Shown here in pieces: positions 17,725 to 64,000 of a stretch of DNA of 64,000 bases (positions are counted from its first letter, which is position 1; each line of letters begins with the position of its first letter). The stretch comes from an uncultured Verrucomicrobiae bacterium. Its GTDB lineage: Bacteria; Verrucomicrobiota; Verrucomicrobiia; Limisphaerales; JAFGQR01. Below the pieces are notes generated by a model that was not told the DNA's origin, made no database searches, and was given only the letters and a program-made list of their open reading frames with translations. A program made the position numbers and the translations under genes. The stretch covers positions 1 to 64,000 of the forward strand of contig CAWBHS010000043.1 of the NCBI GenBank assembly GCA_963788655.1, given 5' to 3'.

Positions 17725-17738
17725 AGATTGTCAGACAT

Positions 17739-26906: not shown

Positions 26907-26923
26907 TTGGCACCCTGACTGCT
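26907..26923 (+). promoter_or_regulatory. sigma54 -24/-12 promoter of the secretin gene
   Basis: TTGGCACcctgaCTGCT matches TGGCAC-N5-TTGC with exact GG-N10-GC spacing, about 70 bp before the ATG. Confidence 0.65.
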
Positions 26924-26990
26924 AAGTCGTCTCCAAGTGAAACAGAGCATTCTGTCATGGTCCGGTCTAAATCAGCGCAAATTTAAGCAC

Positions 26991-29111: not shown

Positions 29112-29158
29112 AACTGTCGTGCTCTTGGTCACCCTATGACTCCTTTTATTCCTGTCCT

Positions 29159-45279: not shown

Positions 45280-46735
45280 TCAGAACCTGGGGAGGACGTT
45301 GATGATGCCGCCGTCAAGGGGCATGTGGTCGGGAACCGCTTTTGCTTTGCGCATCAGCCGGGCGTGTTCCTTCTTCAGCTCGGCCAGCTTGCCGGCGGCG
45401 GCGGGTCGTTGATGAGGTTGTGCATCTCCAGCGGGTCGGCGCGCGAGGTTGTAAAGCTCGGCGCAGTAGCGGTCGGGGCTGCCGTCGCCGTGCGGGTAGT
45501 AGATATACTTCCAATCGGCGGTGCGGATGCCGCGGACGTTGGGGGTGTAGGGGAATTCTTTTTCGTAGTTGTAGAAGTAGAGAAGGCGTCGCGCCAGCCC
45601 TGGGTCTTGCCGGCCAGCAGGGGCTTCCAGGACAGGCCGTCGATGTCTCGGCAGAGGCTTGACGCCGCAGATGTCGAGGATGCTTGGGGCGATATCGAGG
45701 TTGAGGACCATCTGGTCGATGACAACGGGCTTGGGGATCAGCGGGGGTAACGAACGAGCAGCGGGACGCGGAGGCTTTCCTCGTACATCGTGCGCTTGTC
45801 CACGCGGCCGTGCTCGCCGAGGGCAAAGCCGTTGTCGGAGGTGTAGATGATGAGCGTGTTGTCGAGCTGGCCCAGTCTCCTTGAGCGGTCTCGTAGATGA
45901 GGCCTACGGCTGTCGTCCACGGAGAGCAGCGTGCCAGGTAGGCGCGGACGAACTTGTCGTAGTCGTCGGTAGTTGTAGAGCGGGCCGCCCGCGCCGTGCC
46001 AGGTGGGGAAGCTTTCGGCGAGCCAGGCGGGCTTGCCGTCTTTGTAGGCGTCGAAGTTGGCGGGCTTGGTAATGGTGGCGTGATCAAAGACGTGCTGGTA
46101 TTTGGGCTCCGGCTCGATCGGACCGCCGTGCGGGGCCTTTTGGCCGAGGGCGAGCAGGAAAGGCTTGTCGTGCTTGCGCTTCAGCCATTCGACGGCGTGT
46201 TCGGTGACGACCGTCGTGTAGTAGCCTTTGAGGAACTGGGTCGTCGCCGTTGATGTTCCACTCGTTGCCGAAGTAGTTGCCCTGGCCGCGGTGGCTCATC
46301 CAGAAGTCGAAGCCGGTGCGCGGGCTGCCGTTGGTCTCGCCCATGTGCCACTTGCCGAAGTAGGCCGTCTCGTAGCCCGCCTCGTGCAGGCGCTTGGGGT
46401 AGCTCGGGAGAGAGTCGGGGTATTCGGTGAAGTTGTTGAGCGACGCCGTGGCGGTGCGCGTAGAGGCCGCTGAGGAACGAGGCCCGGCTGGGCGAGCAGA
46501 GCGAGGTGGTGACAAACATGTTGGCGAAGCGCGCCCCTTCGGCGGCCAGGCGGTCCATGTTGGGCGTCTTGAGCAGCGGATGGCCGGCGCAGCTCATGGC
46601 GTCCCAGCGCTGGTCGTCGGTGAGGATCAGCAGAACGTTGGGCCGCTGGGGCGGCTTGGCGGAGAGGGGCAGGGTATGGGCAAGCGACAGGACAGATGCC
46701 AGGACGAGGGTGTCAGAGAGCAATGAGGATCTCAT
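45280..46735 (-). CDS. Sulfatase (formylglycine-dependent, S1), frameshifted
   Basis: [53 protein letters not shown]. Confidence 0.9.
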
Positions 46736-46927
46736 GGTGACTGAGGTTAAGACGAGGCCGTCCGCGCACAAGCCGAAAGAAGCTGGGGCCTCGTCTTTTG
46801 ATTCTCTCCAGTCCCATTTTGCCCTACATATTCATATGGGGGAACGTAAGGCCCGGGCGACTGCTGTGGGCTTGTGTGCCCTCACACTGCGGGCCCTGTA
46901 TCGCTTATTTGTGCAGCAAGACGGCTC

Positions 46928-48223
46928 CTATCGCTTGAAATGCCGGTCCGCGAAGTCCAGATACTGGGCCCAATCGTAGGCGGTCAGATCGTGCTTGCCG
47001 GGGCGGATGTGGTAGCCGATGAAATCCCCGACCGGGTGGTTCAGCGGGGGTTGTTTGGCAACGCCCACCCCGGCTTCTTGATACAGTCTGTAAACCGGCT
47101 CCGCGCCTTTAGCGGCGAGAAACTGGCCGAGCGGATCGCACCAGCGATCCTCCTCCGCGCTAGCAATGTACACCGGCCGCGGCGCCATCAACGCGATCAA
47201 CTCGTGCTGATCCACCGGCAGCAGCTCCTCGTGGTCGGAGTATTGCTTGAAGTTGCCGCAGAACCAGTGCGGGCAAATGCGGTTCAAATTTGCCGTCCGC
47301 TCGCCGAAACAGCGCCGGGCCAGGGCCGCGCCACCTTCGCCGGATTCGTTGGCGATGATGAGGGAAAAACGCTCATCGCTCGCGCCCGCCCACAGCGCCG
47401 TCTTGCCAAGCCGCGAATGCCCAATGACGGCAACGCGCTTTGCGTCAATCGCCTTGTCCGTCTCCAGGTAATCCATCGCCCGGCTCAAGCCCCAGGCCCA
47501 CGCGCCAATGGCGCCCCATTGGTCGGGCTGGAAAACCGTGTTTGTTCCTAAAGGGCTCAATGCGGCGCGCACGCCCAGCTTCCAACCGTCCGGGAAATCC
47601 GGCTCGAGGTCGCCATAATAGACGGTGGCCAGCGCGAAGCCGCGCGCGAGGATGGTCTCCACCGGCCAGCGTGTGGCAAGGCTGCCGCGGGAGGCTTCGG
47701 TGGCCCGATTACTGACCACGCCGCTGAATCTCTTGGCCACCCAACGGTCTGACAGATGAATGCCGGGGTCACCAATGATGGCGTGATTACCGCCGAAGTT
47801 CATGCCCAGAAATGCAGGCGCGGGCTGTTTCGCGCGGTTCGGCAGATAAAGCAGCAGGTTCATGCTCGGCCCCTTGGTCGCGCCTGTGAGCCAGACGGTG
47901 ATTTCCTTCCGCGTCGCCTTGCCATCCAACGCGTTCGTCGCGATGGAAGTCACCTCAAACTTCGCCCTGCCGCGGCCCTGCTGCGGGGCGTGACCGTAAA
48001 TCTGGTCAGCAAACAGTTGCAACAGTTCCGGCCGGCGCTTTTGCTCCCACGTCTCCACGTCCGTAACCTTCTTGCCATCGGCGCACACCAGCGGGTCGGG
48101 CAACGTGTAGGCGCGAACTTTTGCTTCGTCGTAGTTCGGCTTGGGCAATTGCGCGCTGCTGGCGACGGTACTGGTCATCAGCACGGCGCAACTGAGCGTG
48201 GGCAGGAACTTTTTCATCATCAT
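46928..48223 (-). CDS. CE15 glucuronoyl esterase-like protein, copy 1
   Basis: Signal peptide; NYDEAKV..YTLPDPL, WAWGLSR, GHSRLGKTALW, ESGEGG, LPVDQH, GKHD. Confidence 0.88.
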   Translation of the reverse strand: MMMKKFLPTLSCAVLMTSTVASSAQLPKPNYDEAKVRAYTLPDPLVCADGKKVTDVETWEQKRRPELLQLFADQIYGHAPQQGRGRAKFEVTSIATNALDGKATRKEITVWLTGATKGPSMNLLLYLPNRAKQPAPAFLGMNFGGNHAIIGDPGIHLSDRWVAKRFSGVVSNRATEASRGSLATRWPVETILARGFALATVYYGDLEPDFPDGWKLGVRAALSPLGTNTVFQPDQWGAIGAWAWGLSRAMDYLETDKAIDAKRVAVIGHSRLGKTALWAGASDERFSLIIANESGEGGAALARRCFGERTANLNRICPHWFCGNFKQYSDHEELLPVDQHELIALMAPRPVYIASAEEDRWCDPLGQFLAAKGAEPVYRLYQEAGVGVAKQPPLNHPVGDFIGYHIRPGKHDLTAYDWAQYLDFADRHFKR

Positions 48224-48341
48224 TCTTCCGTTTGGAACGTGACCGTCAAATGTTGCGCCGGATCCCTGCCAGTCTTGTCGAGCAGCGCGGCCATGTCGGG
48301 TGTCACTTCAACGGCGAAATAGCGGCTGGCTGCCGCGCTCC

Positions 48342-49064
48342 TCAATCCTGTTTCATCAGGGCAGCAAGGGTTGGCTCCATGGCCTCGGCCCAGAGTTGGT
48401 AGCCTTTCGCGCTCGGATGAACGCGGTCGGGCATGATGGTTTTTGGAATCGAACCATCCTCCTCGAGGAAGACTTTTCCGATGTCGAGATACTTGATCAT
48501 TTTGCCGTCGTCGAGCTTGGCGATCGCCTGATTGATCTCCTTGATCTGGAGGCGGTAGGGGGAGTCCGCGGTCGCACGGGGAAAGATGCCCAGGAGCAAC
48601 AGCTTGGTCTCGGGAAGTCTGGCGCGGATTTCCTTCACGATGGCCGTCACCCCCTCGATCACTTCGGGGATCGAGTTGCGCGGGGAGCCATCCTTCTCCT
48701 TGCCAAGGTTGTTGGTGCCGATCATCAGCACGACAACCTTCGGTTTCACCTGGTCCAATTCGCCATTTTCGATGCGCCAAAGGACGTATTGGGTGCGATC
48801 ACCGCCGATGCCGAGGTTCAACGCGTGACGCGGGGCGTAGAACTTTTTCCAGACCTCCAGCCCCCGGGTGCGCCACCAATCCGTGATGGAATCGCCAAGG
48901 AACACCAGGTCGCACGGCCCCTGCTTCGCCTCGGCGAGGAACGCTTCATGCCGTGAAACCCAATTGGTCTTCGTCAATCGGGGAGCGGGAACGACCGCGG
49001 TGTTTTCAGCAAGCGCCAGGGTAGTCAGGAGGACCCCAATAACAAGCAGCAATGATTTCTTCAT
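48342..49064 (-). CDS. SGNH/GDSL esterase (PAF-acetylhydrolase-like)
   Basis: FLGDSIT, GIGGDRT, MIGTNN, DRVHP; signal peptide. Confidence 0.9.
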   Translation of the reverse strand: MKKSLLLVIGVLLTTLALAENTAVVPAPRLTKTNWVSRHEAFLAEAKQGPCDLVFLGDSITDWWRTRGLEVWKKFYAPRHALNLGIGGDRTQYVLWRIENGELDQVKPKVVVLMIGTNNLGKEKDGSPRNSIPEVIEGVTAIVKEIRARLPETKLLLLGIFPRATADSPYRLQIKEINQAIAKLDDGKMIKYLDIGKVFLEEDGSIPKTIMPDRVHPSAKGYQLWAEAMEPTLAALMKQD

Positions 49065-49232
49065 GTGAACAGTAACCAGCAATATGTTGCGTTAACCCGG
49101 TCTCCAGCGACAGGCCCGCGCGAGCTTCGCTCTGGAGGCCGAGAACCGGCGCCCGTTCAAGCTACCGAAGCTGCCCTGCTTTCCGGGTCGCGGAGCGGCT
49201 TCAAGTGTTACAGCAAACCGAAGCAACACGCC

Positions 49233-51516
49233 TCACTTCACCAACCGATAGAACTTCATGCCTCCAACTTGATTGGTCAGCACGTAATCCTCACCCTGAA
49301 CCGTCCCCGCCCCCTCCGATGTCCACGTCGAGGACGAGATATCCGTGGTTGATTCGACAGTGAAGCCGACAGCATTTGTCGGCCAGGACAGGATCACGTC
49401 TGCGCCGGACGGCGAGATGCTGAGCGTTGGCCGGTAAGGCAGGATCGAGAAAGCCGCCAGCCCGTTGTTAGCGGAGATGGCAAACACCTTGTCCTCCGCC
49501 CAGATAATCTTGCCGATCAGGTAACCGTTGTTCCAATGGTTCGTGGGGAAATTGTACTCTGCCAAAAGCAGGGGCAGGTTGAGGTCCGAGATTTCATAGA
49601 GCCGCACAGGGTCAGGGATGGTGTCCGTCCTCGGGTTCTCGATCCCCAAACCGAGATTCCTTTGGAAATCCAACGCCACCGGGACCACATTCGGATTCCA
49701 GTCGGGATAAGAGGCCAGGATCGTGCTGTCGAACGTATTGACGTCATACTGTGCCAGAACGATAGGCCCGCCTTCACGATGAGCCCAGTAGGTGTTGTTA
49801 GTGCCAAACGCAAGTGACCGACCGATGCTGCTGTTGGCATAGTGATTGGCGAAGGCAACGGTGTTCAGCCAGAAACTGTCGAGGTCGGCGCTCGCCGGAC
49901 GGAACAGAGCCGCCCAATTGCCTTCATACGAATCGGCGATGATTTCCGTGTTGGTTCCCGATCCGCGGGCATCCAGCGCGTCCCCCAGCCGCTCGCTGGC
50001 CATGCTGGGAGGAATCCCTCCCCAGATGGCGACCGGCACGGTATTGGAATCATCGTTGGCCCATCGGTAAAGGCGAAATGACTCTGCCACATCGGTGTTG
50101 CAGGCGTAAATCGCGCCATCATCGGCCACCGCGATGGAATTCAAGGTCAGATTATTCGCTCCGCCGAAGATGATACTTGTGTCGGTGTTCATTTGGTAAA
50201 GCTCCTCGCCGGTGGTCCCGTCCAGCACCCAAATGGCCGGATCGCCCGAACCAGTCACGATGTTGGTCCGGCTGACCAGGTACAGGTGATTCGAGGGTGC
50301 GTAGTAGGCGATGCACCTTTGTTCCGGGCGGGAGCCGATGTCCGACGTGAGGTACGGGCGGTTGGTGACGACGTCCATGATGGACGGAGCGATGCCCCAC
50401 AGCGGAGCGAGCCGGGGATACACATCGCGGAGCACAGTGACAACGGCCGGCCGAACTAACCAGGGAAAGAGGGGGATTTGACACAATCACGGTGTAATTT
50501 CCAGAATCGGCAACCTGCGCGTTCGGAAATGACGAGACTCGAGTCGGTGGCTCCCGCAATGGGGTTGCCGTTCCATTGCCACTGGTAACTGGTGGCGTCG
50601 GGGCTGTTCACCTCGAGTTGAATGGCTTGCCCAACCAACAAACGTTGGGACGCGGGCTGGGTGTACAGATTGAGAGTGGGCCCTGCCCCCATGGTCACAT
50701 CTGCCCACTCCGTGCCAAAGTTCAACTCGTCGAAGAGGATGGTCTTGGCCATGCTGGAATGGCGGTTGCAGAGCATGAAACTCACGATGCTGGAAATGTC
50801 AGTTCCAACACTGTTGGTCAATGTGGCGGGCGGCTCGCTGACGCCTCCCAAGGTCCCGGGGTCAGGATTTATCCACGCCCGCACCACATCGTCCGAGGTG
50901 GTGCCGGAGTTGAACTCGTAGCTGATGACCATGAGGATGGGGACGCCAGCGCTGAAGGCGTTCGTATCCCAACTGTAGTTGGATGTCGAAGAGCTGTTCT
51001 TGACGACGCCCACGTTGAATTTCGTGGAGTCGTTGCGCGTCCACCCGGGCCGCAAACCGGGCGTATGCTGCGCTTGAGGGGAAGGTGTTGGTCGTGCCGC
51101 TGTCGTTGTTCAGCGCCACAAAGTAGTATCCGCCACCCAGCCGGTGGGGTCATCGATTTGAAAGATGAAGGAAGCATACAAGGTCCCACTGCCGACAGCA
51201 CTGGGCAAAACGTAGCGCGCGGCGAGCCCTCCCGGGAGCGTGCGCCCCCCCAGTTGCACCTTGTTTCCGGTGGCGTTTGTCAATCCAGGATAGGTGATGT
51301 TGCCGGCAACACCACGGGCTGGTTTGTCAGGGTCGCGTCGTCGCCAGCCTGTTCCCAATAGCCTCCATCGGAATTGCTCTGCCCGATCAAATTCTCGCCG
51401 GGGGTGTAGTTGAAGTGTTCACTGGAGATGACTCCAGCGAAGGTCGAGGTTGAGAAGATCGCTGCGGCCGTCGAGAGGGCCAACGCTTTTTCAATGATGT
51501 TGGTGTGAGTTTTCAT
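49233..51516 (-). CDS. Secreted protein with lectin-like region, Ig domain, DUF4623-like propeller and C-terminal FYRL domain, frameshifted
   Basis: MKTHTN... signal peptide; FDELNFGTEWADV; TQPASQ...YQWQWNG..I.GAT; VADDGAIY, FRLYRW, ERLGDALDARGSG; ends KFYRLVK. Confidence 0.72.
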
Positions 51517-51583
51517 GGTTTTTCGATTCACGCTAACCGGAGTGGCTCTTGAGTGGTGGCGATTTGCCAGGATGGTTGGTTGT

Positions 51584-52399
51584 TCAGTTGTAAGGTGTAA
51601 GTTGTATCCCGTGATCCTCCGATAACTCATAGCGGTAGTTCCACTTGGCTCTTCCGATCCATTCGCTATGGCCATCGGCAAAAACCACGTTGCCACCGTC
51701 CTTGCCATGGCCGTAATAGGGATTGGGATAGTTTTGCCACGGCCAATCGGGTTTGTGCGGCTCCATGCCGTCCATGATGACGAACGTGCCGCTGGGTCCG
51801 GCAATGTTGCCTTTCATCGGGTCGGAGTGTTTTGCGTAACTTGGAACCGAGCGGGTGGTTTTGCGCGGGTAGTTCGCCGACTTGTTGAACCAACAACCGA
51901 AGACTTCGTAACTGTGTCCGTTGGTGGCAGTTCTGCCGGTCGCCTTCTTCTCCAAATCCACCAGTTTTTCGAGAAGTTGGCCCTGATAGAACGCCTGGTA
52001 CTTCTTGTTGGGGTCCACTGCGTTGCGGGTTGTCGGGCAAACGAAGGTGCCCACGTTCTTGATGTAGCCGGTGGATCCAAAGCCATACAGCCAGTTCATG
52101 TCATCGTCTGCCTGTTGGTCTACCGGCGTAGTCTTCAGCGTGCCCGTCAACCGGCCCTTGGAGTCGTCGTCCGCATACATCTGGCTGCCCAACCCCATCT
52201 GGCGGGTGTTGTTCAAACAACTGATCCGCCGGGCTTTGTCCTGGGCCCTGCTCAAAGCCGGAAGCAGCAGGGCCGCCAGAATGGCGATGATCGCGATGAC
52301 GACAAGCAGTTCAATTAACGTGAACCCACGGGCTGCCGTTCGTCGCAGGTAACAACGTCCTTGTGAATCGTTTCCATGGATTGGAGACGCCTGGCTCAT
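51584..52399 (-). CDS. Prepilin-type N-methylation / H-X9-DG domain protein (DUF1559-like)
   Basis: [46 protein letters not shown]. Confidence 0.92.
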
Positions 52400-52439
52400 A
52401 TATACCTTGGGACCTTAGCGAAACCGGGTCTTGCCGGGT

Positions 52440-52457
52440 ATCCTCATTATTAGGGAT
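52440..52457. promoter_or_regulatory. Operator-like palindrome, copy 1 (ATCCTCATTATTAGGGAT)
   Basis: About 40 bp upstream of the prepilin ATG; matches the sites at 63024 and 63787. Confidence 0.6.
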
Positions 52458-52468
52458 GCTCCCCGCTC

Positions 52469-53466
52469 AGCGCCCGTCCATGCTCACCTCCACCCCCGCC
52501 GATTCCACCGCGTCGATAAACATCGGCGAGGTGAACTGCGAGCCTTGATCGGTGTTGGAGACCAGCGGCGCCTGCCGTCCGGCCCGCAGCGCCGCCTCCC
52601 AGGCATCCACACAAAAGGCCGCCTCCAGCGTGTTGCTCAACCGCCAGCCCAGCACATAACGGCTCCACCAATCCATCACCGCCACCAAATACATGAACCC
52701 GCGGGCCATCGGCACATACGTAATATCCGCACACCAGACTTGGTCCGGCCCCGTCACCGCCAAATCCCGCAACAGATACGGATAAATCTGGTGCCCCGGC
52801 GCGGGCACGCTCGTCTTGGGCTTGGCGTAGATCGCCTCGATCCCCATCAGCCGCAGCAGGCGCACCACCCGCTTGCGATTGATGGCCACTCCTTCCCGGC
52901 GCAAGCTCGCCGCCAGCTTGCGACTGCCGTAAACCGGATGCTCCAGGTGCAACTCGTCCAACCGCCGCATCAGCGCCAGGTTCTCCTCCGTCTCCGGAGC
53001 GCACTGGTAATAGTAACGTGCTGCGGCACAGGTCCAACAGCTCGCACTGGTGCCGCACACTGACTTGTGGGTCCGGACCGATCAGTTCTTGCAGGCATGT
53101 TACAATCCCAGTTGCTTGGACTTTTTTTTAAGCCAGTCCAGGTCCACCGTCAGTTGGCCGATCTTCTGATGCAATTGCGCGATCAACTGCTCCTGGTCCT
53201 CCGTCCCCGGCTTGTCCGGGCTCGAACAACTCGGGCAGGTGATCCCGAATCGTCGCCCGCCATTGCGTCACCTGCGTCGGATGCACCGCATACTCTCTCG
53301 CCAATTGCGAGACCGTCTTAAGCCCCACCAGGGCTTCGAATCCCACTTTGGCCTTGAAGGCCGCACTATGCCGTTTGCGTTTTGCTTTCATAGTCTGCTT
53401 TCTCTTCTCCAGCAGACCAGCGAAAGTCCATCTTAACTGGTGGTCCAGTTTTTGGGGTCCACCTCA
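52469..53466 (-). mobile_element. IS3-family element, truncated (left IR, orfA and partial orfB)
   Basis: End TGAGGTGGACCCCAAAAACTGGACCACC at 53466; orfA MKAKRKRHSAAFKAKV from 53391; A8G slippery site at 53121-53129; orfB YGSRK, WCADITY, DWWSR, NTDQGSQFT stops at MDGR before the third DDE residue; no right IR. Confidence 0.9.
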
Positions 53467-53672
53467 CCGAGGCTCTTTTGGAAATCCAATGCCAGAGGGA
53501 CAACGTCCGGACTCCAGTCCGGATAGGAGGCCAGGATCGTGCTGTCAAACGTATTAACTTCATACTGTGCCAGAACGATAGGTCCGCCTTCACGATGAGC
53601 CCAGTAGGTGTTATTAGTCCCAAATGCGAGCGACCGGCCGATGCTGCTGTTGGCATAGTGATTGGCGAAGGC
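53467..53672 (-). pseudogene. Internal fragment of a paralog of the 49233-51516 gene
   Basis: AFANHYANSSIGRSLAFGTNNTYWAHREGGPIVLAQY.VNTFDSTILASYPDW matches about 49660-49855 with many third-position changes. Confidence 0.88.
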
Positions 53673-53704
53673 GCAGCGGATTGCCCAGGAGGAACTGGAC
53701 GCGC

Positions 53705-54997
53705 TCAGTTGAAATGCCGGTCTGCGAAGTCCAGATACTGGGCCCAATCGTAGGCGGTCAGATCGTGCTTGCCGGAGCGGATGTGGTAGCCGATGAAATC
53801 CCCGACCGGGTGGTTCAGCGGGGGTTGTTTGGCAACGCCCACCCCGGCTTCCCGATACAGTTTGTAAACCGGCTCCGCGCCTTTAGCGGCGAGAAACTGG
53901 CCGAGCGGATCGCACGAGCGATCCTCCTCCGCGCTAGCAATGTAGACCGGCCGCGGCGCCATCAACGCGATCAACTCGTGCTGATCCACCGGCAGCAGCT
54001 CCTCGTGGTTGGAGTATTGCTTGAAGTTGCCGCAGAACCAGTACGGGCGAATGCGGTTCAAATCTGCCGTCCGCTCGCCGAAACAGCGCCGGGCCAGGGC
54101 CGCGCCACCTTCGCCGGATTCGTTGGCGATGATGAGGGAAAAACGCTCATCGCTCGCGCCCGCCCAGAGCGCCGTCTTGCCAAGGCGAGAATGCCCAATG
54201 ACGGCAACGCGCTTTGCGTCAATCGCCTTGTCCGTCTCCAGGTAATCCATCGCCCGGCTCAAGCCCCAGGCCCACGCTCCAATGGCGCCCCATTGGTCGG
54301 GCTGGAAAACCGTGTTTGTTCCTGAAGGGCTCAATGCGGCGCGCACGCCCAGCTTCCAACCGTCCGGGAAATCCGGCTCGAGGTCGCCATAATAGACGGT
54401 GGCCAGCGCGAAGCCGCGCGCGAGGATGGTCTCCACCGGCCAGCGGGTGGCAAGGCTGCCGCGGGAGGCTTCGGTGGCCCGATTGCTGACCACGCCGCTG
54501 AATCTCCCGGCCACCCAACGGTCGGACAGATGAATGCCGGGGTCGCCCATGACGGCGTGATTACCACCGAAGTTCATGCCCAGAAATGCGGGCGCGGGCT
54601 GTTTCGCTCGGTTCGGCAGATAAAGCAGCAGGTTCAGGCTCGGCCCCTTGGTCGCGCCTGTGAGCCAGACGGTGACTTCCTTCCGCGTCGCCTTGCCATC
54701 CAACGCGTTCGTCGCGATGGACGTCACCTCAAACTTCGCCCTGCCGCGGCCCGGCTGCGGGGCGTGACCGTAAATCTGGTCAGCAAACAGTTGCAACAGT
54801 TCCGGCCGGCGCTTTTGCTCCCACGTCTCCACGTCCGTGACCTTCTTGCCATCGGCGCACACCAGCGGGTCGGGCAACGTGTAGGCGGGAACTTTTGCTT
54901 CGTCGTAGTTCCGCTTGGGCAATTGCGCGCTGCTGGCGACAGTGCTGGTCATCAGCACGGCGCAACTGAGCGTGGGCAGGAGCTTCTTCATCATCAT
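53705..54997 (-). CDS. CE15 glucuronoyl esterase-like protein, copy 2
   Basis: About 19 substitutions against copy 1 over about 430 aa (counted by eye); GHSRLGK intact. Confidence 0.88.
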   Translation of the reverse strand: MMMKKLLPTLSCAVLMTSTVASSAQLPKRNYDEAKVPAYTLPDPLVCADGKKVTDVETWEQKRRPELLQLFADQIYGHAPQPGRGRAKFEVTSIATNALDGKATRKEVTVWLTGATKGPSLNLLLYLPNRAKQPAPAFLGMNFGGNHAVMGDPGIHLSDRWVAGRFSGVVSNRATEASRGSLATRWPVETILARGFALATVYYGDLEPDFPDGWKLGVRAALSPSGTNTVFQPDQWGAIGAWAWGLSRAMDYLETDKAIDAKRVAVIGHSRLGKTALWAGASDERFSLIIANESGEGGAALARRCFGERTADLNRIRPYWFCGNFKQYSNHEELLPVDQHELIALMAPRPVYIASAEEDRSCDPLGQFLAAKGAEPVYKLYREAGVGVAKQPPLNHPVGDFIGYHIRSGKHDLTAYDWAQYLDFADRHFN

Positions 54998-55035
54998 TTT
55001 TCCCTTTGGAACATGACCGTCAAATGTTGCGCAAC

Positions 55036-56014
55036 TCAATGGTTCAAGATGTATAAAAAGTTGGGCCTCAATCTCTCCAGCGTGCCGTGCCCGTCTACTT
55101 TTTTAACGATCAATCTATCGCCAACTACGGTGGAAACACTGCCGCCGCCGTCGAGGTTGAATGCAAACCGTCACGTCCAACGCGTTCAGAACTCTTATCA
55201 GTTCCTTTGCCGTCATCCCATCGCCGTCATAACCGCGTCCCCCGCAGCTTAGAAACAGTATATCCAGGTTATCAAACTGAGCGATTACCTGCCGGGGATT
55301 CTTCGCAATGAGATTTCCGGCTATCTTAAAGAGTTCCTCGGAGACTGGCTGGTGGTCCTCAATTAAAGGGATAAAGCCCGTAAGGGCGGTTTTCACCCCG
55401 TCATCCAGTATGAATTGCGCTCTTTGTCCGGGCTTGTAGGCGAGCAATTCGTTGTTATCTCTGATTCCGAGCGAATAACACCTTGTGGTCAGGTCCTGAA
55501 CGATCACCCCATTCACAATTTGAATTCCCACTGGCTGTCGGATGTCAGGCGGCAGGTTTTTCAAGCCCATGGAGGCGTTGAAAGCCAACGTGGTGTTCTT
55601 TCTAATGGCAAAATTCCTCACTGCCTCTCCCTCCGGCTTGTCCGAGAGGGCGAGCCTGAGTTTTATCAGCTTCCCATTTTTGTCTTTATGGAAGATCCGG
55701 GTCAGGAAGTAGTAGGTATTTGATTCCTTGTCGAAGTGCCTGCTGATATCGCAAATCCCCTCAGTGCGCAACCGGTGGAACTCCTGTTCCAACGCCGGAT
55801 TAATCGTGAGGTCCAGATTGGAAACCAGTTCCGAGCCAGCGGGGGCTGACACCTGGGCATGGATGGAAGATGCGAGGAACAGGGAGAGCAACACCTTGAG
55901 AACACGCCCCGGGAGTGCACGACCGGCACCGGCAAAAAGGCTCATGGGCCATTTGGTGAAGACAAGCCCCTTGATCGATGCGCAACCAAAACTTCTCCCT
56001 GGATTTAACTTCAT
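55036..56014 (-). CDS. Phosphodiester glycosidase (NAGPA) family protein
   Basis: FNAS, NPRQVIA, GRG..GDGMT; after an indel near 55170 AFNLDGGGS...RPNFLYI. Confidence 0.8.
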
Positions 56015-56068
56015 GGTGTTAATTCTGCCAGCCTTTCCCTGGTTTCAATACAACGTACGCCCGCCGCG

Positions 56069-57097
56069 CTACCGTTTATCCGCCCTCTCCGTGACCGACA
56101 TTTTTTCCCCGTCGGCGGGCCCCTTTAGCCGCTCTATGAGATAATCCGCAACCGTCGGGTGCCGGACGTCCCGCGCTCCCGGATACACCAATTCATACTT
56201 CAACCCGGCTTTGCGAAGCGCGCCGCTGAGCCCCACGCCGAAATTGGCACTGTGAGTGGGATCTTTCTCCGGCGTCCCGAATGTGGGAGGTCTGCGGTAC
56301 CAAAGATAAACCGGAGGATCGTCCGGACTGACGAGATTGTATGGCGAGTATTCCGCCAGCCATGGGAGGATTTGCTCACGCTTTTCAAAGAATTCTTCGA
56401 ACTGGGTCTGGTTCTTCTCCTTGTTGCCGGTGAAACCAAAGGCGTGCCCTCCGTAAATGGAGTTGGGTATCCACTCTCGCATTTGTTTTGGGTCGAGCGT
56501 CGTCTGCGCGACCCGAACGGCAGCGCACCAGACACGCGTGGATTCCCTGGAAACAGGGTCGGCGCTGGAGGGGTCTGCCATATCATTGTGAAAGGCCAGC
56601 CAAAGGCTGGAGCAGGCTCCGGCGGAACCGCCCGAGGCAGCGATTCTCCTTTTGTCCAAATTCCATGGGCCAGCCATGGACCGCACGAATTGCAAAGCGC
56701 GCGCGGCGTCCTCCAAGGGACATTTCACGGGCGGCTTTACGTTTGCCGCGTCGGTGACGAGGCGGTAGTTGATCGAGGCCACCGAGATGCCAGCCTCCAG
56801 AAATCTTTCGACATCCGTTACAGTGCCTTTGTTACCACCCCTCCAACCTCCGCCATGGATAAAGAAAACCAAGGGGGTGGGGCGATCCGACTTGGCCTTC
56901 CAAAAATCCAACACCTGCCTTGGATGTGGCCCGTAGGCCACATTCGTGAGAGTCTGGGCAACAGGGGGAGCCGTCATCGCGCTCAGCGCACTCGTCACGA
57001 GAACGAAAGGCGCGGAAAGGGCCGCCCCAGCGGCTAATACCCGGGCAAACCGGCGCGGAAGCCGGGAAGTCTCACGAATTAAGCGTTTGATTCGCAT
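56069..57097 (-). CDS. Alpha/beta hydrolase (HSL-like / BD-FAE-like esterase)
   Basis: YGPHPRQVLD, IHGGGW, INYR, GGSAG, DPTH. Confidence 0.88.
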   Translation of the reverse strand: MRIKRLIRETSRLPRRFARVLAAGAALSAPFVLVTSALSAMTAPPVAQTLTNVAYGPHPRQVLDFWKAKSDRPTPLVFFIHGGGWRGGNKGTVTDVERFLEAGISVASINYRLVTDAANVKPPVKCPLEDAARALQFVRSMAGPWNLDKRRIAASGGSAGACSSLWLAFHNDMADPSSADPVSRESTRVWCAAVRVAQTTLDPKQMREWIPNSIYGGHAFGFTGNKEKNQTQFEEFFEKREQILPWLAEYSPYNLVSPDDPPVYLWYRRPPTFGTPEKDPTHSANFGVGLSGALRKAGLKYELVYPGARDVRHPTVADYLIERLKGPADGEKMSVTERADKR

Positions 57098-57249
57098 GTT
57101 GGCATCGTAGATTCCGGCCGCCTGCTGGCAAGGGCAATGACTCATAGCGGAACAAATGTTGTATGGGTGATTTCGGTTGGTTTTCGTCTCCGTGACAAAG
57201 CGACGGCACGGATGCCTTGCGGACATCCGTGCCGTCATATTTCTATGTG

Positions 57250-57279
57250 AAGGGCTCGCATCGCACGGGCGCGAGCCTT
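57250..57279 (-). terminator. Hairpin downstream of the autotransporter-repeat gene
   Basis: GGCTCGC-N12-GCGAGCC stem immediately after the stop; weak U-tract. Confidence 0.45.
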
Positions 57280-57285
57280 GTCTGG

Positions 57286-60200
57286 TTAAGGTTTCCGCAA
57301 GCGGTAAAACACGTTCCCCATCGACTTGTCGATTGCGATGACCAGGTTGGTGGCCGAATCGGAGCCGGGGATGTCAAACCACTGCCCGGCGTCAGCCAGG
57401 CTCACGGCGTTGGATTGCGCCAGCCAACCGCTGTGGGAACCGGGCCAGGTGAGAAGACAATTCCGTTCCCGCCGAATTGATCGTGAAGGATATATTGGTC
57501 GGGGTGGTTGCCATGGTCGAGAGCACCGTGGCTATACCAGTAGCCGGGTCGAAGGACCATGTGGCGCCGCCGCCGGCTGATTGGATTGTCGTGAACGTTC
57601 CGGAATGGGACGCCGCGCTGAACAGTTGGAATGTCTGGCCGTTAGCGAGAGTCCCCGCTGTATTGGTCAGGATCAGCGTTCCATCGTAGTTAGCGGTTGT
57701 GATTCCCTGCACGAGGTCCGCGCCGGACGTATCCGCGTTCACGCTCACCAGGGCCTGCCCCGTTGCCGCGAAGGTCAGGATGTTATTGATTGTCAGCGTG
57801 CCCGCCGGAGCCAGCATGCCCGAGGTCACGTTGACCGGTCCGTTCACCACGCCATTGCCACCGAGCGCCCCGCCCGCCACGGTTACCGCGGCCGAAGCAA
57901 GGGAGCCATCCACCCGCAGCGCACCGTCGTTCACAATGGTGGCTCCGGCATAGGTGTTCGCGCCTTGCAGCGTCAGGATACCCGGGCCATTCTTGGTCAG
58001 GCCTCCCGAGGTATTGGGAGCCGTGCTCACCGCGCCGGGCGTCGCCGCCACCGCCGGCGATCCGCCGACAAAGGTGAAATAGGTGCCCCCCGCAGTGTAA
58101 TTCACACCAGGATTGCACACTGTCACGCTGCCGACCTGGAGCCCACCCGCGCCATCGGAGACCATGTTTGCAATGGCGTTAGCGCCGGTGCCGTCCCCGA
58201 CAATGGAAACATAAGGTGCACCGATGTAGCCTGACCCCCCGTTAGCCACCGCAAGTGCGCTAACGCCCTCACCCGTGGGAGCGAGGAGATCGGCTTCCAC
58301 GAGACAATCCTGTCCGGCAGTGTCAATCACCGCCCCGCCCGCGAATGAGCCGAACGGGCCGTTGACATAGACCGCCGTAAGGGGCGGCAGGAAGCTGCTG
58401 CTAAAGGTCTGACTCGGGGAGGTCAGGGTGCTCAGCGTCGCCGTGAGCGTGCCGCCGTTGAGGTTAAGGTAACTGATGCCCGTGGTTCCCGTGGTTCCCG
58501 CCTTCTTGTTCACGAAGCGGTTGAGCCTCAAATTTCCTCCGTTGATATTCACGATGCCCGAGCCGTTGCCGGTGCCCCCGTTGTAACCATACCCGACGCC
58601 ACCTCCCGTGTTGTCAATCTCACCGCCCAGCAGGTTGAGTTCGCCACGCCCGTCCCCGTTATTATTTACGGAGATCAGCCGGTTTGCGTACGCATGGCTC
58701 AAGAGTCCTCCTGTGACCGTAAGCGAGCCTGTGCCGTCTCTCACGCCTACAAGGAGATAATCTGTCCCGGTTCCGCAGTAAAACTCGCCCCCACCGATGG
58801 TCGCTACTCCCAAGCCGGTATAAGAGCCTGGCACCCAAAGCTGATTAGCACGAACGATTCCGCCGGACATGCGCATCGCGCCGTATCCCGAGTGACCGAT
58901 CTCGAAGTTGCCCGACGCGGTTGCCTGCAGGTTCGTTAGCGTTCCACCCGAGATGTTCACCGCCCCGCTATCGCCAGCCACGTAGCCCGGCTGGAACGTA
59001 TTCGCAAGGAGAACCTCTGCGCCGGGGAGAATATTGATAACGCCTTTTCCGGAGTTCGCTCCCGCTTTCCATGCTCCGGTGCCGGTGTTGACCGAGCCGC
59101 TGATGGACAGAGACCCGTTGTCGATCGAGACGGCGCCCGCGCTGTTGGACAGCGAGCCGGAAATCGTCACTGAGCCTCCGTTCACCAAGGTTGCCCCTTC
59201 ATAGAAGCTCGCGTTGGTCATGGTGAGCGAGCCGGTGCCGGTTTTGGTGAGCCCTGTCGCGCCAGATAAGGAGCCCGTGCCGCCAAAAGTGTAGTTCTTC
59301 CCATTATTATCCACCGTAAGCGAGCCGGGGGCCAGATCTCCGACCAGACTGACGATACTGGCGCCGGGGGCCGAATCATCAAATGTCACGTCCGCTCCCT
59401 GGATGAAAACCTTGGGAGTCCCATTATTCACCCAGTTGGCCGTGATCAGCTCGTCCCATATTCCCACGCCGGCCGTGCTGATTGTTCCCCGCCACTTCAG
59501 CGCACCGGATATGAGGGTGGCATTAAAATCGAAGGAGGAGTTCGCGGCATTATGTACGATGTAGCCCGACACACCGTCCGGAGCACTCAAGATGCTGTTG
59601 GTGATTAAAGCCGGGTCCCCCACGAGAGTCGTGTACTGATCAAGGGAAACTGGCCCAGAACAAAATCCGCGCCGGAAACCGCTATGGCGGTCGCCCCGTT
59701 CAGATTCAGAGTTCCCACCGTAACGACTTCCGAACTCGTGTTGCCAGCCGGCAGGACAAACGCAAGCTCCCCGCCCGCCGCTGTGGTGATGCTTCCCAAA
59801 GGCATGGAGGGTGTCACCGGGTCCCGTAAGACGCCGAAGCTGCCGCCGTCGTTCACGATCACGTTGCCGCCTCCGGCGTGGACCGTGGAGAGCACAAGAC
59901 GGCCGCCGTTGACGACCGTATCTCCTGTGTAGGTGTTCGTGCCCATCAGGGTCAATGTGCCCAAGCCACTCTTGGTCAGACCACCGGAGGTGTTCGGGGC
60001 CGTGACAACCGGAGCCGTGGAGTCGGGCACTGCTGGAGATGGGGCTCCTCCGCCAATCAGGCTGAAACTTGTTCCGATTGCAGTGTAATCCACTCCTGGG
60101 TTGCACACTGTGATGCTGCCGACCTTGAATGTGCCTTTGCCCGTTCCGTCATCCACCATGTTGGCAATAGCCGTTGCGCCCTTGCCGTCGCCGCTGACGG

Positions 60201-61573
60201 ACACGTAGGGCGCACCGATGTAGCCAGAACCGCCGTCGGCGATTTTCAGTTCACGAATGCCCTCGCCGGTCGGCGCGAGGAACGGCGATTCCGCCAAGCA
60301 ATCCTGGCCGGCACTGTCGATGATGGCCCCGCCGGGGAATTCTCCAAACGCGCCGTTGATGTAAATGTTCACGTAAGCAGGAATGAAGTTGCTGCTGAAG
60401 TCCAGCGACGAGGTCAATGTGCTTGCGGAGGCGACGAGCGTGCCGCCATTGAAGTTTACGTAAGCAACGCTGTTGTAGTCCTGCGGAGTTCCGTTCTGAC
60501 TCGCACTGATGAACCGGTTCAAAAGCAGGTTGCCACCGTTGATGTTCACGATACCAGACCCGGTGCCGACGGTCGCGAGTCCCGTGTTCAAACCGAAGCT
60601 GATAGCACTACCGGAGTTATCCAGCGTGCCGCCAAGCATATTGATCTCGCCGCGACCGAGAGAGTTGTTGTCAAGCGAGATGACCCTGGTTTCGCTGGAA
60701 TGGCTCACCAAGCCGGATTTCACGGTCAAAACGCCGGTGCCCGTGCTGTAGCCGAGCACCATGTAGTCCCCGCCGTTGGCATATAAGGAACCGCCATCGA
60801 TTAGGGCTGTGCCATAGCCGCCCGTATAGCCGATGTAAACCCGGTTTGCCTGGACCGTGCCGGCAGTCAAATCCACAGAGCCGTTCCCGTAGCGACCGAC
60901 AAGAAAGTTATAAACGCTGGCTCGCCTGCGAGTTCGTGACGGAGCCGCCCTTAACGTAAAGCGCGCCGTTGTGACCGGCGTTCTGTCCCATGATGAAGTT
61001 ACCTGCGTTGTTGATGGCGGCGCCCTCGGGAAGGACCAGCATGCCGCCATTCACATAAGTGTAACCGTCATAGGTGTTGCGGGCGGTTAGAGTCGTTTTG
61101 CCGGAGCCGACGATGTGCAGGCCGCCGCTTCCGGAGATCACGCCTCCGAGCGTCAGATTTCCGTCCATGGTTGCCACATAGCGGGTTGATGTGACGGAAA
61201 GGGGCAGGTCCAGGGTTTGCAAGATGCCGCTGTTATTGGTGATACCGCTGGCCAAAACAATGCTGTTTCCCAGCAGCGTGAATGCTCCCGCTCCCGGATT
61301 GAAGGTGATGTCGCGAAACGCGCTGGAGGCCGGGAAGTCATTCTCTGGGGTCAGCCGGGTGGTTCCCTGGAACTCCAGGCTGTTCGTCGTGGCTGGTACC
61401 GGAAGATTGCCGCCCCAGTTGTCCGCGTTGTTCCAATAGTTGTCGGCTCCTCCGCCATTCCAAATGTAGGGGGAGTCCGCGTGGGCCGCGAGTGCGGCAC
61501 CGAGTGAGAGGATGCACAGCAGGACCTGCATGCCGCGGGTCTGCGGTCGGGTTACGATGAGTTTTTTTTGCAT
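57286..61573 (-). CDS. Large secreted protein with autotransporter-associated beta-strand repeats, no beta-barrel, C-terminal FYRL domain (indels near 60920, 59635, 57455)
   Basis: Signal peptide; WNGGGADNYW; repeats GLTKSGLGTLTLMGTNTYTGDTVVNGG, GLTKTGTGSLTM, GLTKNGPGILTLQGANTY; ends NVFYRLRKP. Confidence 0.85.
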
Positions 61574-61625
61574 AAGACGTGGATTTGATTTTTGAGGGGC
61601 CGGTGAAAAGAACTTAACTTAGCTA

Positions 61626-62440
61626 TTACTGCTGCGGGGGTTTTCGGTTGCCGTCAGTCATGGTGTTGAGCACGTCGAGCCACCGGGAGCGCTTTACGAA
61701 TTCACTGTGGCCGTCGCAGAAGGTGACCGTAAATCCATCCACACCGTGATTGTCTCCGGGGTCAGGATACTGCGCGTCCGGGGTTGCCGGGCTTGTTGGC
61801 ATTGCCGTCATCACCATCAACCAAGAGGAAAATTTTGGAAGGGCCTGGGACGGTGCCCGGGGCGGCGCCGGTGTAATTTTTAAGGGTAAAAGTATTCACG
61901 GTCCGTTCCGTTTTCTTGAGGTGGCTCCGGGAGGGGAAAGTTGCCAAAGCACTCGTAACTGAGCCCGTTCTTGGTCTTGTCCTTGGACATGAATCCGAGG
62001 TCGATTACCACGGTTTCACTTGGGTTTGTCGGTTTAGCAATGGTATCCGGGCGAATGTAGTTTTGCGTGCTTGGACAGACGTAGCTGCCAAAGCTCTTCA
62101 CATAGGCCGGGTAGAGCCAATTCTGGTCGTCATCGGCTGAAGAGCGGTCGGAGAGGTAATTGGCAGCTTTCGTGTCTTTTACGAATTTGGGGTACCAACT
62201 GGCACCGCTCAGGTTTCCATCATTGTCTCCGGCATACAGCATGCTGCCGAGTCCCAGTTGGCGTAGGTTGTTAAGGCATCCTATCTTCTTCGCCCGGTCC
62301 TTGGCTTTCGCGAGCGCAGGGAGCAGCAGGGCTGCCAGTATTGCAATGATCGCGATGACGACAAGCAGTTCGATGAGAGTGAACCCTGGTGCAACCTTTG
62401 AGCAACAGCCATGGGAAAACCGTTTGTTAATCCTGATCAT
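61626..62440 (-). CDS. Prepilin-type N-methylation / H-X9-DG domain protein, frameshifted
   Basis: [52 protein letters not shown]. Confidence 0.88.
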
Positions 62441-62980
62441 AAGCAACTTTCCATTGTAGGTCCTTCACGCCAACATCGGGAACATCGGGAATCCAAATCC
62501 GTTCCGGGTTTCCGACTCGCCTGCATTTGTCATATAGTAGCAATGGCCCTTCGGGATTACTATGCAAACTGATAAGAAATTGCTTTTTGCGCGCCCACGT
62601 GTACCTCAGCGCTGCGCGGGTGAAGGTGCGCACGCTCTTGATGTAACCCTGGCCGCCGAACCCATACAGCCAGTTCATGTCGTCATCGGCCTGCTGGTCA
62701 ACCGGCGTGGTCTTGAGCGTGCCCGTCAGACGCCCCCGCGAGTCGTCCTCCGCATACATCTGGCTGCCCAGCCCCAACTGGCGGGTGTTGTTCAAACAAC
62801 TGATCCGCCGGGCTTTGTCCTGGGCGCGGCTCAGAGCCGGAAGCAGCAGGGCCGCCAGGATGGCGATGATGGCAATCACGACCAGCAGTTCAATCAGCGT
62901 GAACCCCCGGCTTGCCGTTCGTTGCAAGTCAGTAGCTTCCCGTGAGGATCGTTTCCTCGAATTGGAGACGGCTGGCTCAT
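62427..62980 (-). pseudogene. Truncated/chimeric paralog of the prepilin gene at 51584-52399
   Basis: Near-identical N-terminus up to GYIKSVRTF (about 62625), then an unrelated tail with no H-X9-DG. Confidence 0.8.
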
Positions 62981-63023
62981 ATATAATACCTTCGAACCGT
63001 AATCACACCGGGCCAAGCCGGAT

Positions 63024-63041
63024 ATCCTCATTAATGAGGAT
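63024..63041. promoter_or_regulatory. Perfect 18-bp palindrome ATCCTCATTAATGAGGAT
   Basis: Between the response regulator and the prepilin gene, 44 bp upstream of the ATG. Confidence 0.7.
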
Positions 63042-63080
63042 GCTCCCCGGCCGGCCTCCGGCCTGCCCTCACCCGGGTTT

Positions 63081-63738
63081 CTACTCATCGAGCCCCACCC
63101 CCGCCGATTGAGGCAACTGCACGAAGCGGGTCGCCGCTTCCACCCGGGAGCGCACATGCAGCTTGTCGAAGATATGGGCCACATGACTGCGCACGGTGGT
63201 GAAGCTGATCTGCAAACGGTCGGCGATCTCTTTGTCGAGGTATCCCTGGGCGAGCAGTTCGAGCACTTCGTATTCCCGGCGGCTCAGGTTGCAGTCGGCG
63301 TGCGGCTTGGCCACCGGTCGGCAGAACGACTCGATGACCCGGCGCGCGATTTCTCCGGTCATCGGGGCGCCTCCCTGCGTGACCTCGTGGATCGCGGCCA
63401 CCAGTTCCACCGGCGTGGTGCGCTTGAGCAGATAGCCACTGGCTCCCGCCTGGAGTGCTTGAAACAAGCGATCGTTGTCCGAATGGACCGTCACCATCAG
63501 AATGCGGGTGCGGGGCAGGAGCGGTTTCAAGCAGGCAACACACTCGATCCCGGACATTCCCGGCAAGCTGATGTCCATCAGCACGACATCCGGCTTCAGT
63601 CCCGGCATCCGTTGCAGCGCTTCCTCTCCCGGTACGGAATGTCCCCACGCACTCCAAACCCGGCTGCGCCCCCAACATCCGGATCCAATTCCTGGAAATA
63701 GGGGCGCTGTCTTCGACGATTCCGATTCTGGTATTCAT
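63081..63738 (-). CDS. NarL/LuxR-family response regulator
   Basis: IGIVEDS, LMDISLPGMSG, AGASGYLLK, LSRREYEVLELLAQGYLDKEIA, KLHVRSR; indel near 63630. Confidence 0.9.
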
Positions 63739-63786
63739 CCGATGCGAACTGTTCCGAATCATGGATTACTTCCCCTGCTTTCAGCT

Positions 63787-63804
63787 ATCCTCATTATTGA
63801 GGAG
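63787..63804. promoter_or_regulatory. Operator-like palindrome, copy 3 (ATCCTCATTATTGAGGAG)
   Basis: About 49 bp upstream of the response regulator ATG, overlapping the kinase stop codon. Confidence 0.6.
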
Positions 63805-64000
63805 ACTCGGCGGGACTGGGAACCGCGCCTCCCACTGCAAGGGTAAACACAACTTGTGTTCCCCCGCCGGGCCGCGGCAAAAGCTCCGCCTTTCCGTTCG
63901 AGCGCCCGCAGACGTTCCTGCATGTTCCTGAGGCCCTCGCCCCGGGCCACCCTCTCCGCGTCAAAGCCGGCGCCATTATCTTCGACACGACACCTTCAAT
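63794..64000 (-). CDS. Histidine kinase C-terminal HATPase, partial
   Basis: EDNGAGFD...GEGLRNMQERL...PGGGTQV. Confidence 0.8.
   Translation of the reverse strand: MEGVVSKIMAPALTRRGWPGARASGTCRNVCGRSNGKAELLPRPGGGTQVVFTLAVGGAVPSPAESPQ

Follow-up and report, generated by a model that had tools for sequence, protein, structure and literature searches.

Near the end of the 64,000-nucleotide (nt) window analyzed here, positions 1 to 64,000 of contig CAWBHS010000043.1 (C43) from an uncultured Verrucomicrobiae bacterium of the Limisphaerales, lies an island of genes for exported esterases that also holds two paralogous modules. Each module joins a gene for a prepilin, a protein with a type IV pilin-like N-terminus, to a gene for a large exoprotein ending in an FN3-like tail. 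This pilin-partner pair is a real, conserved module in the order, recurring across the genome and across related genomes, unlike the esterase set that surrounds it here, and pilin and partner diversify together. By analogy with minor pilins that act on secreted proteins, each prepilin may work on a shared type II or type IV machine as a minor pseudopilin specific to one cargo, its partner, which it would export or display; we regard this reading as possible, if a little short of probable.

The genes of the two modules are as follows, in window coordinates:

62427..62927, minus strand: prepilin A1, a truncated remnant of a prepilin-B-type gene (N_methyl 6.5e-9)
61640..62446, minus strand: prepilin A2, full-length H-X9-DG type, in three frames (tblastn pieces covering residues 7-168, 174-211 and 203-253)
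57289..61573, minus strand: ~1437-amino acid (aa) exported PATR-repeat protein, in at least four frames (PATR and TIGR02601 matches)
51584..52399, minus strand: prepilin-B, intact, 271 aa (class III signal G-FTLIE, N_methyl 3.6e-8)
49233..51519, minus strand: ~762-aa exported protein, in four frame pieces (tblastn of the homologue P0121)

Each large protein starts ~65 nt after a prepilin gene. An earlier note on this DNA had held that both end in the same domain, and a hidden Markov model (HMM) of the tail bears this out, with i-E values of 2.9e-12 for the 762-aa protein and 7e-5 for the ~1437-aa protein. The former has a signal peptide, an Ig_3 domain in its homologues and a tail ending FYRLVK, besides an N-terminal part and a C-terminal body that are assigned to no family. 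One of these homologues (P0144) is named as coming from Pedosphaera parvula, and all scores in a protein-atlas comparison of P0121 were below 0.9. The ~1437-aa protein contains an internal repeat of ~2 kb (repeats D4 and D6), and its tail ends FYRLRKP. We rejected a type V autotransporter identity for this protein: Pfam and NCBIfam searches matched PATR repeats only and no autotransporter beta-barrel translocator, and the C-terminus is the FN3-like tail instead of a barrel.

Prepilin and tailed partner form a recurring module

Grown from the end of the 762-aa protein, the tail HMM finds 208 domains in the source genome, a metagenome assembly of 8.96 Mb in 115 contigs (completeness 86%, contamination 5.6%). 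Of these domains, 184 are found no more than 12 residues from a stop codon, the usual ending being RFYR[VL]xxxP; as the fourth round was still adding matches, these figures are approximate. In the PDB, the profile of the tail matches FN3 domains at E values between 4.5e-7 (FN3con) and 1e-3, contactin-4 among them at 6.6e-5. No Pfam family, fn3 included, covered the tail in a scan of 39 tails at E values up to 1, in which only TSP3 repeats preceding four of the tails were matched. In the same scan, Por_Secre_tail matched none of the 39, and the C-terminal sorting domain of the type IX secretion system (T9SS) was therefore rejected as an identity for the tail. Partners of prepilins include PD40 propellers with TSP3 repeats (four loci) and cadherin-like, Ig, lamin-tail, RHS and PATR proteins. 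Homologues of the window proteins are named Verrucomicrobiota, Pedosphaera or Limisphaerales in their source records.

Prepilins were located with an HMM of our own, which found 54 prepilin-type N-termini in 42 loci; TIGR04294, with its 22 positions, gave only 3 matches. A locus was counted as paired if a tailed gene on the same strand ended no more than 1.5 kb upstream or 0.8-7 kb downstream of it. By this definition, 14 of the 42 loci are paired, as against 4.6% of 971 control gene proxies (binomial p 3e-9), with the tail upstream at 7 and downstream at 9. When the two units of C43 and the two of contig C60 are each counted once, 12 of 40 loci remain paired. Within 7 kb downstream, 11 tails lie on the same strand and 3 on the opposite one.

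The association extends to the order. Among 26 loci of the prepilin-B subfamily, 13 are paired, and 17 same-strand tails contrast with a single tail on the opposite strand. These loci are all the listed non-self matches that cover the prepilin-B profile to at least position 245, with partial and N-terminal-only matches left out, and the 11 genomes that contain them all belong to different families. At two more of these loci, a tail-like end escaped the HMM and was recognized by eye, and at five the sequence is interrupted by a contig end or by masking. The gaps between prepilin and tailed gene measure 31-200 nt. Among the best 120 homologues of prepilin-B, 13 agree with one of the best 120 homologues of the 762-aa protein in the exact size of the longest contig, which suggests that genes of both families share metagenomic contigs, some of only 4.6 kb. 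In the literature searched, supplements lying outside that search, we found no description of a prepilin-tail pairing.

Pilin and partner also match in kind. The prepilins that stand beside PD40/TSP3 proteins, five in number and spread over four contigs, are one another's best matches (44-73% identity) and form a single clade in a quick tree (SH-aLRT 99), a clustering equaled in none of 500 shuffles. The suggestion in the earlier note that each pilin is dedicated to its neighbor gains support from this co-diversification. The correspondence is not strictly family-to-family, as the same pilin subfamily also occurs beside PATR proteins in relatives (L100, L105 and L107). The arrangement of a prepilin followed by a PD40 propeller with TSP3 repeats and an RFYRVLLAP tail is found at C60:361-369 kb, C99:4-8 kb, C76:38-43 kb and C9:69-73 kb (L088-L091). 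On C60, this module occurs twice in tandem, and its two pilins are 73% identical.

A candidate cargo-specific pseudopilin

Prepilin-B carries a class III signal, recognized by N_methyl (3.6e-8) and TIGR02532 (4.7e-8), both above their cut-offs. In the 36 family members, F26, E30 (Glu5 of the mature protein numbering) and the hydrophobic helix are invariant, and an HSYE motif and H231-x10-D242-G243-H244 are conserved, the spacing being x10 rather than x9. Homologues are named "H-X9-DG protein" in their source records; prepilin-B itself scores 16.7 bits against TIGR04294, the H-X9-DG model (cut-off 19, E 0.0048). It exceeds the cut-off of DUF1559 (PF07596, also named SBP_bac_10) with 26.6 bits against 23.3, but only over profile positions 3-28 of 268. 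The GspG model TIGR01710 covers only residues 24-64, at 32.3 bits against a cut-off of 88.85, and membership of that family is thus not indicated.

The AlphaFold2 model of prepilin-B (pLDDT 86.8) has a 50-residue N-terminal helix set on a beta-sheet head. All proteins at VIA-align ranks 1-19 for this model are type IV pilins or pseudopilins, with Z scores of only 5.2-3.0, in keeping with a pilin fold. A Foldseek search with the same model returned nothing below E 1e-3, and sequence matches in the PDB cover the helix only. A solute-binding fold, which the Pfam name SBP_bac_10 would imply, was rejected, as it did not appear in the fold searches, though matches this weak exclude little.

The genome encodes the parts that such a protein would need: one prepilin peptidase gene (Peptidase_A24), 19 matches to the T2SSE ATPase family on 11 contigs and seven secretin loci. 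Canonical tandem pseudopilin clusters and GspE-type ATPases are also present, for example at C60:67-71 kb. At three of the seven secretin genes, a tail protein on the same strand ends 4.2-4.6 kb downstream, where the random rate predicts 0.45. One case lies on the plus strand of the window (26919-32904) and consists of a secretin gene (26919-29108), an NHL-repeat protein and a 738-aa RFYRV-tailed protein (30691-32904). On contig C89, an ATPase-secretin operon has immediately behind it the gene for an Ig-rich tail protein of 1424 aa, after which comes an alpha-galactosidase.

We count the co-diversification, the strand-biased pairing, the proximity of secretins to tails and the pilin fold in favor of a cargo-specific pseudopilin, along with the palindromes before the regulator and both prepilin genes and the alginate-related pseudopilins of Verruconatronum alginivorum (PMC13274419), both described below. 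In the mechanism that we envisage, the single prepilin peptidase would cleave the prepilin, which would then join a machine related to type II secretion systems or type IV pili as a cargo-specific minor (pseudo)pilin. The pilin could carry its partner through the secretin or hold it at the tip of a short fiber, as TcpB does with TcpF and CofB with CofJ. Here, the partners would bind or scaffold a glycan whose ester and sulfate decorations the neighboring enzymes remove.

A rather unlikely alternative is that the prepilin is a membrane-tethered periplasmic or surface protein outside any filament, whose class III signal is only an anchor and whose task is to chaperone, dock or bind its own neighbor. 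Archaeal bindosomes, whose sugar-binding proteins bear a pilin signal, offer a model for such an anchor-only prepilin. The disproportion between 54 prepilin-type N-termini and one peptidase would suit it, as would the Pfam family name and the residue at position -1 of the cleavage site, which is Ala in 26 of the 36 family members (manual count) and in 25 of the 45 genome N-termini with a readable motif, and which could impair cleavage. The three prepilins of the window, however, have Gly at -1 together with Glu5, and the invariance of Glu5 and the hydrophobic helix in the family is what filament assembly would lead one to expect. The fold, moreover, matches pilins only and not solute-binding proteins, with the caution already given on the weakness of those matches.

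Several observations weigh against the cargo-specific pseudopilin. No machine genes occur in the locus. Most members of both families stand apart, with 28 of the 42 prepilin loci lacking a tailed neighbor and only 15 of the 184 tailed proteins having a prepilin beside them; the tail is therefore not a signal that always requires a private pilin. Gene order varies (tail then pilin, or pilin then tail), and in arrays the partner is ambiguous. In broader samples, the association fades: among the matches listed for distant prepilins from many phyla, tails were found at 4 of 76 same-strand neighbors at position -1 and 1 of 69 at position +1, against 16 of 788 genes overall, and among the listed metagenome loci with enough flank, 3 of 45 were tail-positive. 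Those samples consist mostly of distant prepilins drawn in by the generic FTLIELLV pattern, and either the pairing is confined to this lineage or the tail HMM lacks reach beyond it. That HMM derives from this same genome, the controls are approximate stand-ins of similar length in an error-rich assembly, the related genomes are not independent and the prepilin tree is a quick one. The proposal in the earlier note that H-X9-DG genes are enriched next to FYR[LV]-tailed proteins thus stands for this genome and its order, and not, in the samples analyzed, as a general property of the Planctomycetota-Verrucomicrobiota-Chlamydiota (PVC) bacteria.

The unpaired members, the two gene orders and the duplicate nature of the units in the window and on C60 would also suit an absence of any physical partnership, with two abundant envelope families sharing operons through co-regulation and duplicating by hitch-hiking. 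We judge this improbable in view of a pairing that persists in 11 genomes from different families of the order, a strand bias of 17 to 1 and the single clade formed by five PD40-partnered pilins on four contigs. If the pairing were mere co-regulation, the locus would be an ordinary esterase island under two-component control.

As a case of pilin and exoprotein diversifying together, the pairing provides a concrete hypothesis for the function of some of the expanded DUF1559/H-X9-DG prepilins and suggests a partner for the RFYR tail. To our knowledge, how type II secretion chooses its substrates is poorly understood in general. In some PVC genomes, no family of paralogues is larger than that of the DUF1559/H-X9-DG prepilins. 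The available part of PMC10632474 describes DUF1559 as a family of unknown function and reports 68 copies in Planctopirus limnophila, two of them essential. A bolder extension, which we think doubtful, is that in Verrucomicrobiota, and perhaps in further PVC phyla, the H-X9-DG/DUF1559 expansions represent libraries of cargo-specific pseudopilins, each co-evolving with one giant exoprotein, and that the RFYR[LV] tail is a common handle for secretin-based type II or type IV machines. If true, cargo for secretion or surface display would be sorted by exchangeable pilins, in which the specificity would reside.

Content, history and regulation of the locus

The remaining features of the region are listed from the contig end inward; no strand applies to the palindromes.

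63794..64000, minus strand: 3' end of a sensor histidine kinase gene that continues to the contig end at C43:65255 (identified from the translation)
63787..63804: third palindrome copy, 3 mismatches, overlapping the kinase stop codon and ~25 nt before the regulator start codon
63081..63762, minus strand: NarL/LuxR-type response regulator (REC + GerE), in two frames (Pfam Response_reg 1.7e-17, GerE 7.3e-19)
63024..63041: perfect 18-nt palindrome ATCCTCATTAATGAGGAT, candidate operator of the NarL-type regulator, upstream of A1
56069..57238, minus strand: BD-FAE-type alpha/beta-hydrolase esterase (Pfam BD-FAE 4.4e-21)
55115..56014, minus strand: NAGPA-type phosphodiester glycosidase (Pfam NAGPA 2.4e-8)
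53705..55039, minus strand: CE15 glucuronoyl esterase, copy A (Pfam GCE_fung 2.8e-33)
53463..53726, minus strand: fragment of a second copy of the 762-aa gene, beginning at the 3' end of CE15-A
52467..53400, minus strand: remnant of an IS3-family insertion element, OrfA + OrfB (transpos_IS3 5.4e-50)
52440..52457: palindrome copy B, 2 mismatches, 41 nt upstream of the prepilin-B start codon
48342..49082, minus strand: SGNH/GDSL esterase (Pfam Lipase_GDSL_2 7e-30)
46928..48223, minus strand: CE15 glucuronoyl esterase, copy B (Pfam GCE_fung 7.1e-34)
45280..46831, minus strand: sulfatase, in at least three frames (Pfam Sulfatase 1e-19 and 3.7e-18, SGSH_C)

The region is an island of exported esterases (two CE15, one BD-FAE and one SGNH) with a NAGPA glycosidase and a sulfatase, on which a gene of glycoside hydrolase family 2 (GH2) converges. 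As far as can be told from sequence, its chemistry is clearly the removal of decorations, by the CE15, BD-FAE and SGNH esterases and the sulfatase. The CE15 copies score 118 and 116 bits against GCE_fung (cut-off 27), which places them in that family, and both contain GHSRLG, which we take to be the CE15 nucleophile motif. By eye, the CE15, SGNH and NAGPA proteins have signal-peptide-like N-termini, whereas BD-FAE has a less typical hydrophobic N-terminal stretch.

Many of these genes are interrupted by frame changes. Single-base frame errors occur throughout the assembly, and those in the locus affect the regulator, prepilin A2, the PATR protein, the 762-aa protein and the sulfatase. We conclude that the frame breaks are assembly errors and not pseudogenes because of three observations. 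First, the essential rpoB gene (C45:51013-54792, locus L011) is itself split over three frames, with two frame changes within ~700 nt. Second, P0121, an intact 760-aa homologue that is 93% identical, spans the 762-aa gene from residue 1 to 760 over four frame pieces (tblastn), one of the frame changes adjoining a run of five C. Third, independent contigs from four public runs, aligned to the window at 93% likeness or more, carry 1-nt indels at 61936, 60919 and 59636, the places of inferred frame changes in A2 and the PATR gene. The locus genes were therefore read through the frame changes. The earlier note had done the same for the long genes, justifiably, without flagging that most of them are broken. 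Given the state of rpoB, every pseudogene call in this genome needs care.

All genes that the earlier note had listed for the two minus-strand units are present, as judged from Pfam and NCBIfam matches and translations. Its statement that one architecture occurs twice holds only in part, for the two units appear to descend from one and so to be largely a duplication rather than two independent cases. In a self-comparison, CE15-A and CE15-B are 96.9% identical over 1324 nt, nearly exactly the gene plus 35 nt upstream, and their 431 codons differ by 18 synonymous and 21 non-synonymous changes. The palindrome and the first 350 nt of prepilin-B are 83.5% identical over 430 nt to the stretch before and inside A1. 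At the protein level, A1 shares 81% identity with prepilin-B across residues 18-134; the resemblance breaks off at about residue 120, and the remainder of a prepilin-B-like sequence beyond that point is absent in every frame. A1 is thus a remnant; of the two prepilins reported for this unit, both genes exist and only A2 is full-length. A2 is whole and shares 45% identity with prepilin-B, and A1, A2 and B form one clade among the prepilins of the genome (SH-aLRT 95, quick tree).

Traces of rearrangement lie between the units. The 264-nt fragment at 53463-53726 has 79% aa identity to residues 195-280 of a 417-aa piece of the 762-aa gene and 89% nt identity to that gene over 207 nt. The IS3 OrfB ends at profile position 306 of 369, exactly where the palindrome segment begins. 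The element is single-copy in the assembly, and contigs of three runs continue differently at 52474, as expected if it is complete elsewhere. No contig of the public runs spans the junctions of CE15-A, fragment, IS3 element and palindrome, and the duplication is neither confirmed nor contradicted by independent data. Since the units are duplicates, their likeness is no independent evidence for a functional architecture. Two joints in the public contigs carry too little weight to be used. In the first, a contig of run X1 (depth 5.8, shorter side 32 letters) passes directly from 62371 to 62951 and skips A1; it could stem from a related strain that has only one prepilin after the palindrome, or be misassembled across the N-terminal coding stretch that the prepilins share. 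In the second, another single contig, with short sides, connects 52676 to 53469.

The kinase, of Reg_prop/Y_Y_Y type, and the NarL-type regulator probably control the island via the 18-nt palindrome. Dimeric LuxR/NarL-type helix-turn-helix regulators bind inverted repeats, and the regulator may bind this one. The exact sequence ATCCTCATTAATGAGGAT occurs once in the 8.96-Mb genome; with up to 3 mismatches there are four matches, three of them in this locus. The palindromes that the earlier note had pointed out are therefore above chance, copy B being imperfect. The regulator matches the NCBIfam NarL model at 6.8e-35, under the model cut-off. Two results count against such control: the kinase matches to HisKA_3 (E 8.7e-5), Y_Y_Y (9e-4) and Reg_prop (1.3e-3) in Pfam all fall below the curated cut-offs, and the palindrome was not seen at prepilin starts in relatives, where 472 kb gave four matches with up to 4 mismatches, their positions compared without annotation. 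A scan for promoters and terminators was at chance level, with 6 promoters against 5.2 expected and 17 terminators against 20.2. Both CE15 copies have the same promoter-like TTGACG-16-AAxAAT site on the minus strand (48222-48249 and 54996-55023), in the duplicated segment upstream of the start codon, within a scan that was at chance overall.

The earlier note had also called such loci an analogue of the polysaccharide utilization loci (PULs) of Bacteroidetes. It had correctly observed that no TonB, SusC/D or ABC-transporter family is present, as no such Pfam family was matched among the open reading frames scanned in 43-64 kb. The analogy goes too far because this import machinery is absent, and a Bacteroidetes-type PUL was rejected, neither a SusC-like TonB-dependent transporter nor a SusD-like gene having been found among those frames. 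In this reading, such loci would be the verrucomicrobial counterpart of PULs, in which each pseudopilin senses or hands over a glycan and the locus serves its capture, breakdown and uptake. We consider this distinctly unlikely. The wealth of esterases, the sulfatase and the adjoining GH2 gene would fit, as would, weakly, the resemblance of the kinase to glycan-sensing Reg_prop/Y_Y_Y sensors, and some pairs in relatives stand beside GH2 + LacI or GH123. An alginate-induced pseudopilin in Verruconatronum alginivorum, reported in the available part of PMC13274419, points the same way. Besides the missing transporter, however, neither unit has a backbone-cleaving glycoside hydrolase, and the pilin head has no match to a sugar-binding fold. 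Other pairs in relatives lie beside housekeeping genes, and most pairs in this genome adjoin non-glycan genes (PD40, cadherin-like, RHS, LTD and housekeeping).

Sulfatase frequencies fall on both sides of this question. A sulfatase lies within 5 kb of 2 of the 42 prepilin loci (2.2 expected) and within 10 kb of 6 (3.9 expected), which is no enrichment, whereas within 15 kb the count reaches 13 of 42 against 5.3 expected, an enrichment of ~2.4-fold. The claimed association of H-X9-DG genes with carbohydrate-active enzymes and sulfatases is thus a loose one, visible at 15 kb and not at closer range.

Elsewhere in the window, the minus strand carries a reading frame with a reverse-transcriptase domain (36546-37565; RVT_1, E 5.8e-15), which could belong to a group II intron or a retron. 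A minus-strand cluster at 7000-19300 contains NiFe-hydrogenase pieces, a HycI-type maturation protease, several CCG/4Fe-4S (HdrD-like) proteins and the alpha and beta subunits of an electron-transfer flavoprotein; several of its genes are frame-split.

Comparison with known systems

The FN3-like tail resembles the C-terminal domain of T9SS cargo in being a small C-terminal domain, here a predicted beta-sandwich, common to many exported proteins (184 here). It differs in lacking a Por_Secre_tail match in the 39 tails scanned and in a profile that matches FN3. With Bacteroidetes PULs, the locus shares a clustering of enzyme genes with a dedicated sensor system, but it has no SusC/D pair.

Another parallel, drawn from its description, is V. 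alginivorum. In the available part of PMC13274419, this member of the Verrucomicrobiota has a pulG-like pseudopilin, with 67 paralogues, inside a gene cluster induced by alginate. A further pseudopilin is over-expressed on the same substrate, and the authors propose that the enzymes leave the cell by type II secretion. Common to both genomes are many pseudopilin paralogues, one of them inside a polysaccharide cluster. Pairing with a tailed partner and co-diversification are not described in that part of the source.

Prepilin-type genes that adjoin a giant protein gene are also a feature of another verrucomicrobial system. The Verru_Chthon cassette (TIGR02596, TIGR02599), which we take to be a set of prepilin-type proteins with a very long protein, presumably has three pilins, in contrast to one here. 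Matches to these models here have E values of 1.8e-4 and 2.1e-3, in the N-terminal part only and far below the cut-offs.

With the pseudopilins GspG/H/I/J/K, prepilin-B has in common a class III signal with Glu5 and the pilin fold. Only its N-terminal 40 residues match GspG, however; its head is about twice as large, and its gene stands alone beside a cargo-like gene instead of in a gsp operon.

The systems that motivate the cargo-specific reading are TcpB-TcpF of Vibrio cholerae and CofB-CofJ of enterotoxigenic Escherichia coli, in which, according to the available parts of PMC9565799, PMC10120004 and PMC6048534, a secreted protein interacts with a minor pilin and its export needs the pilus machine. 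The modules described here differ from these in having an H-X9-DG pilin, machine genes located elsewhere, many pairs per genome, partners of 760-1440 aa with a shared FN3-like C-terminal domain and a binding of partner to pilin that is only putative. What they have in common with both, as far as those sources describe them, is that the gene for a protein with the pilin fold accompanies one for a secreted protein that is not a pilin.

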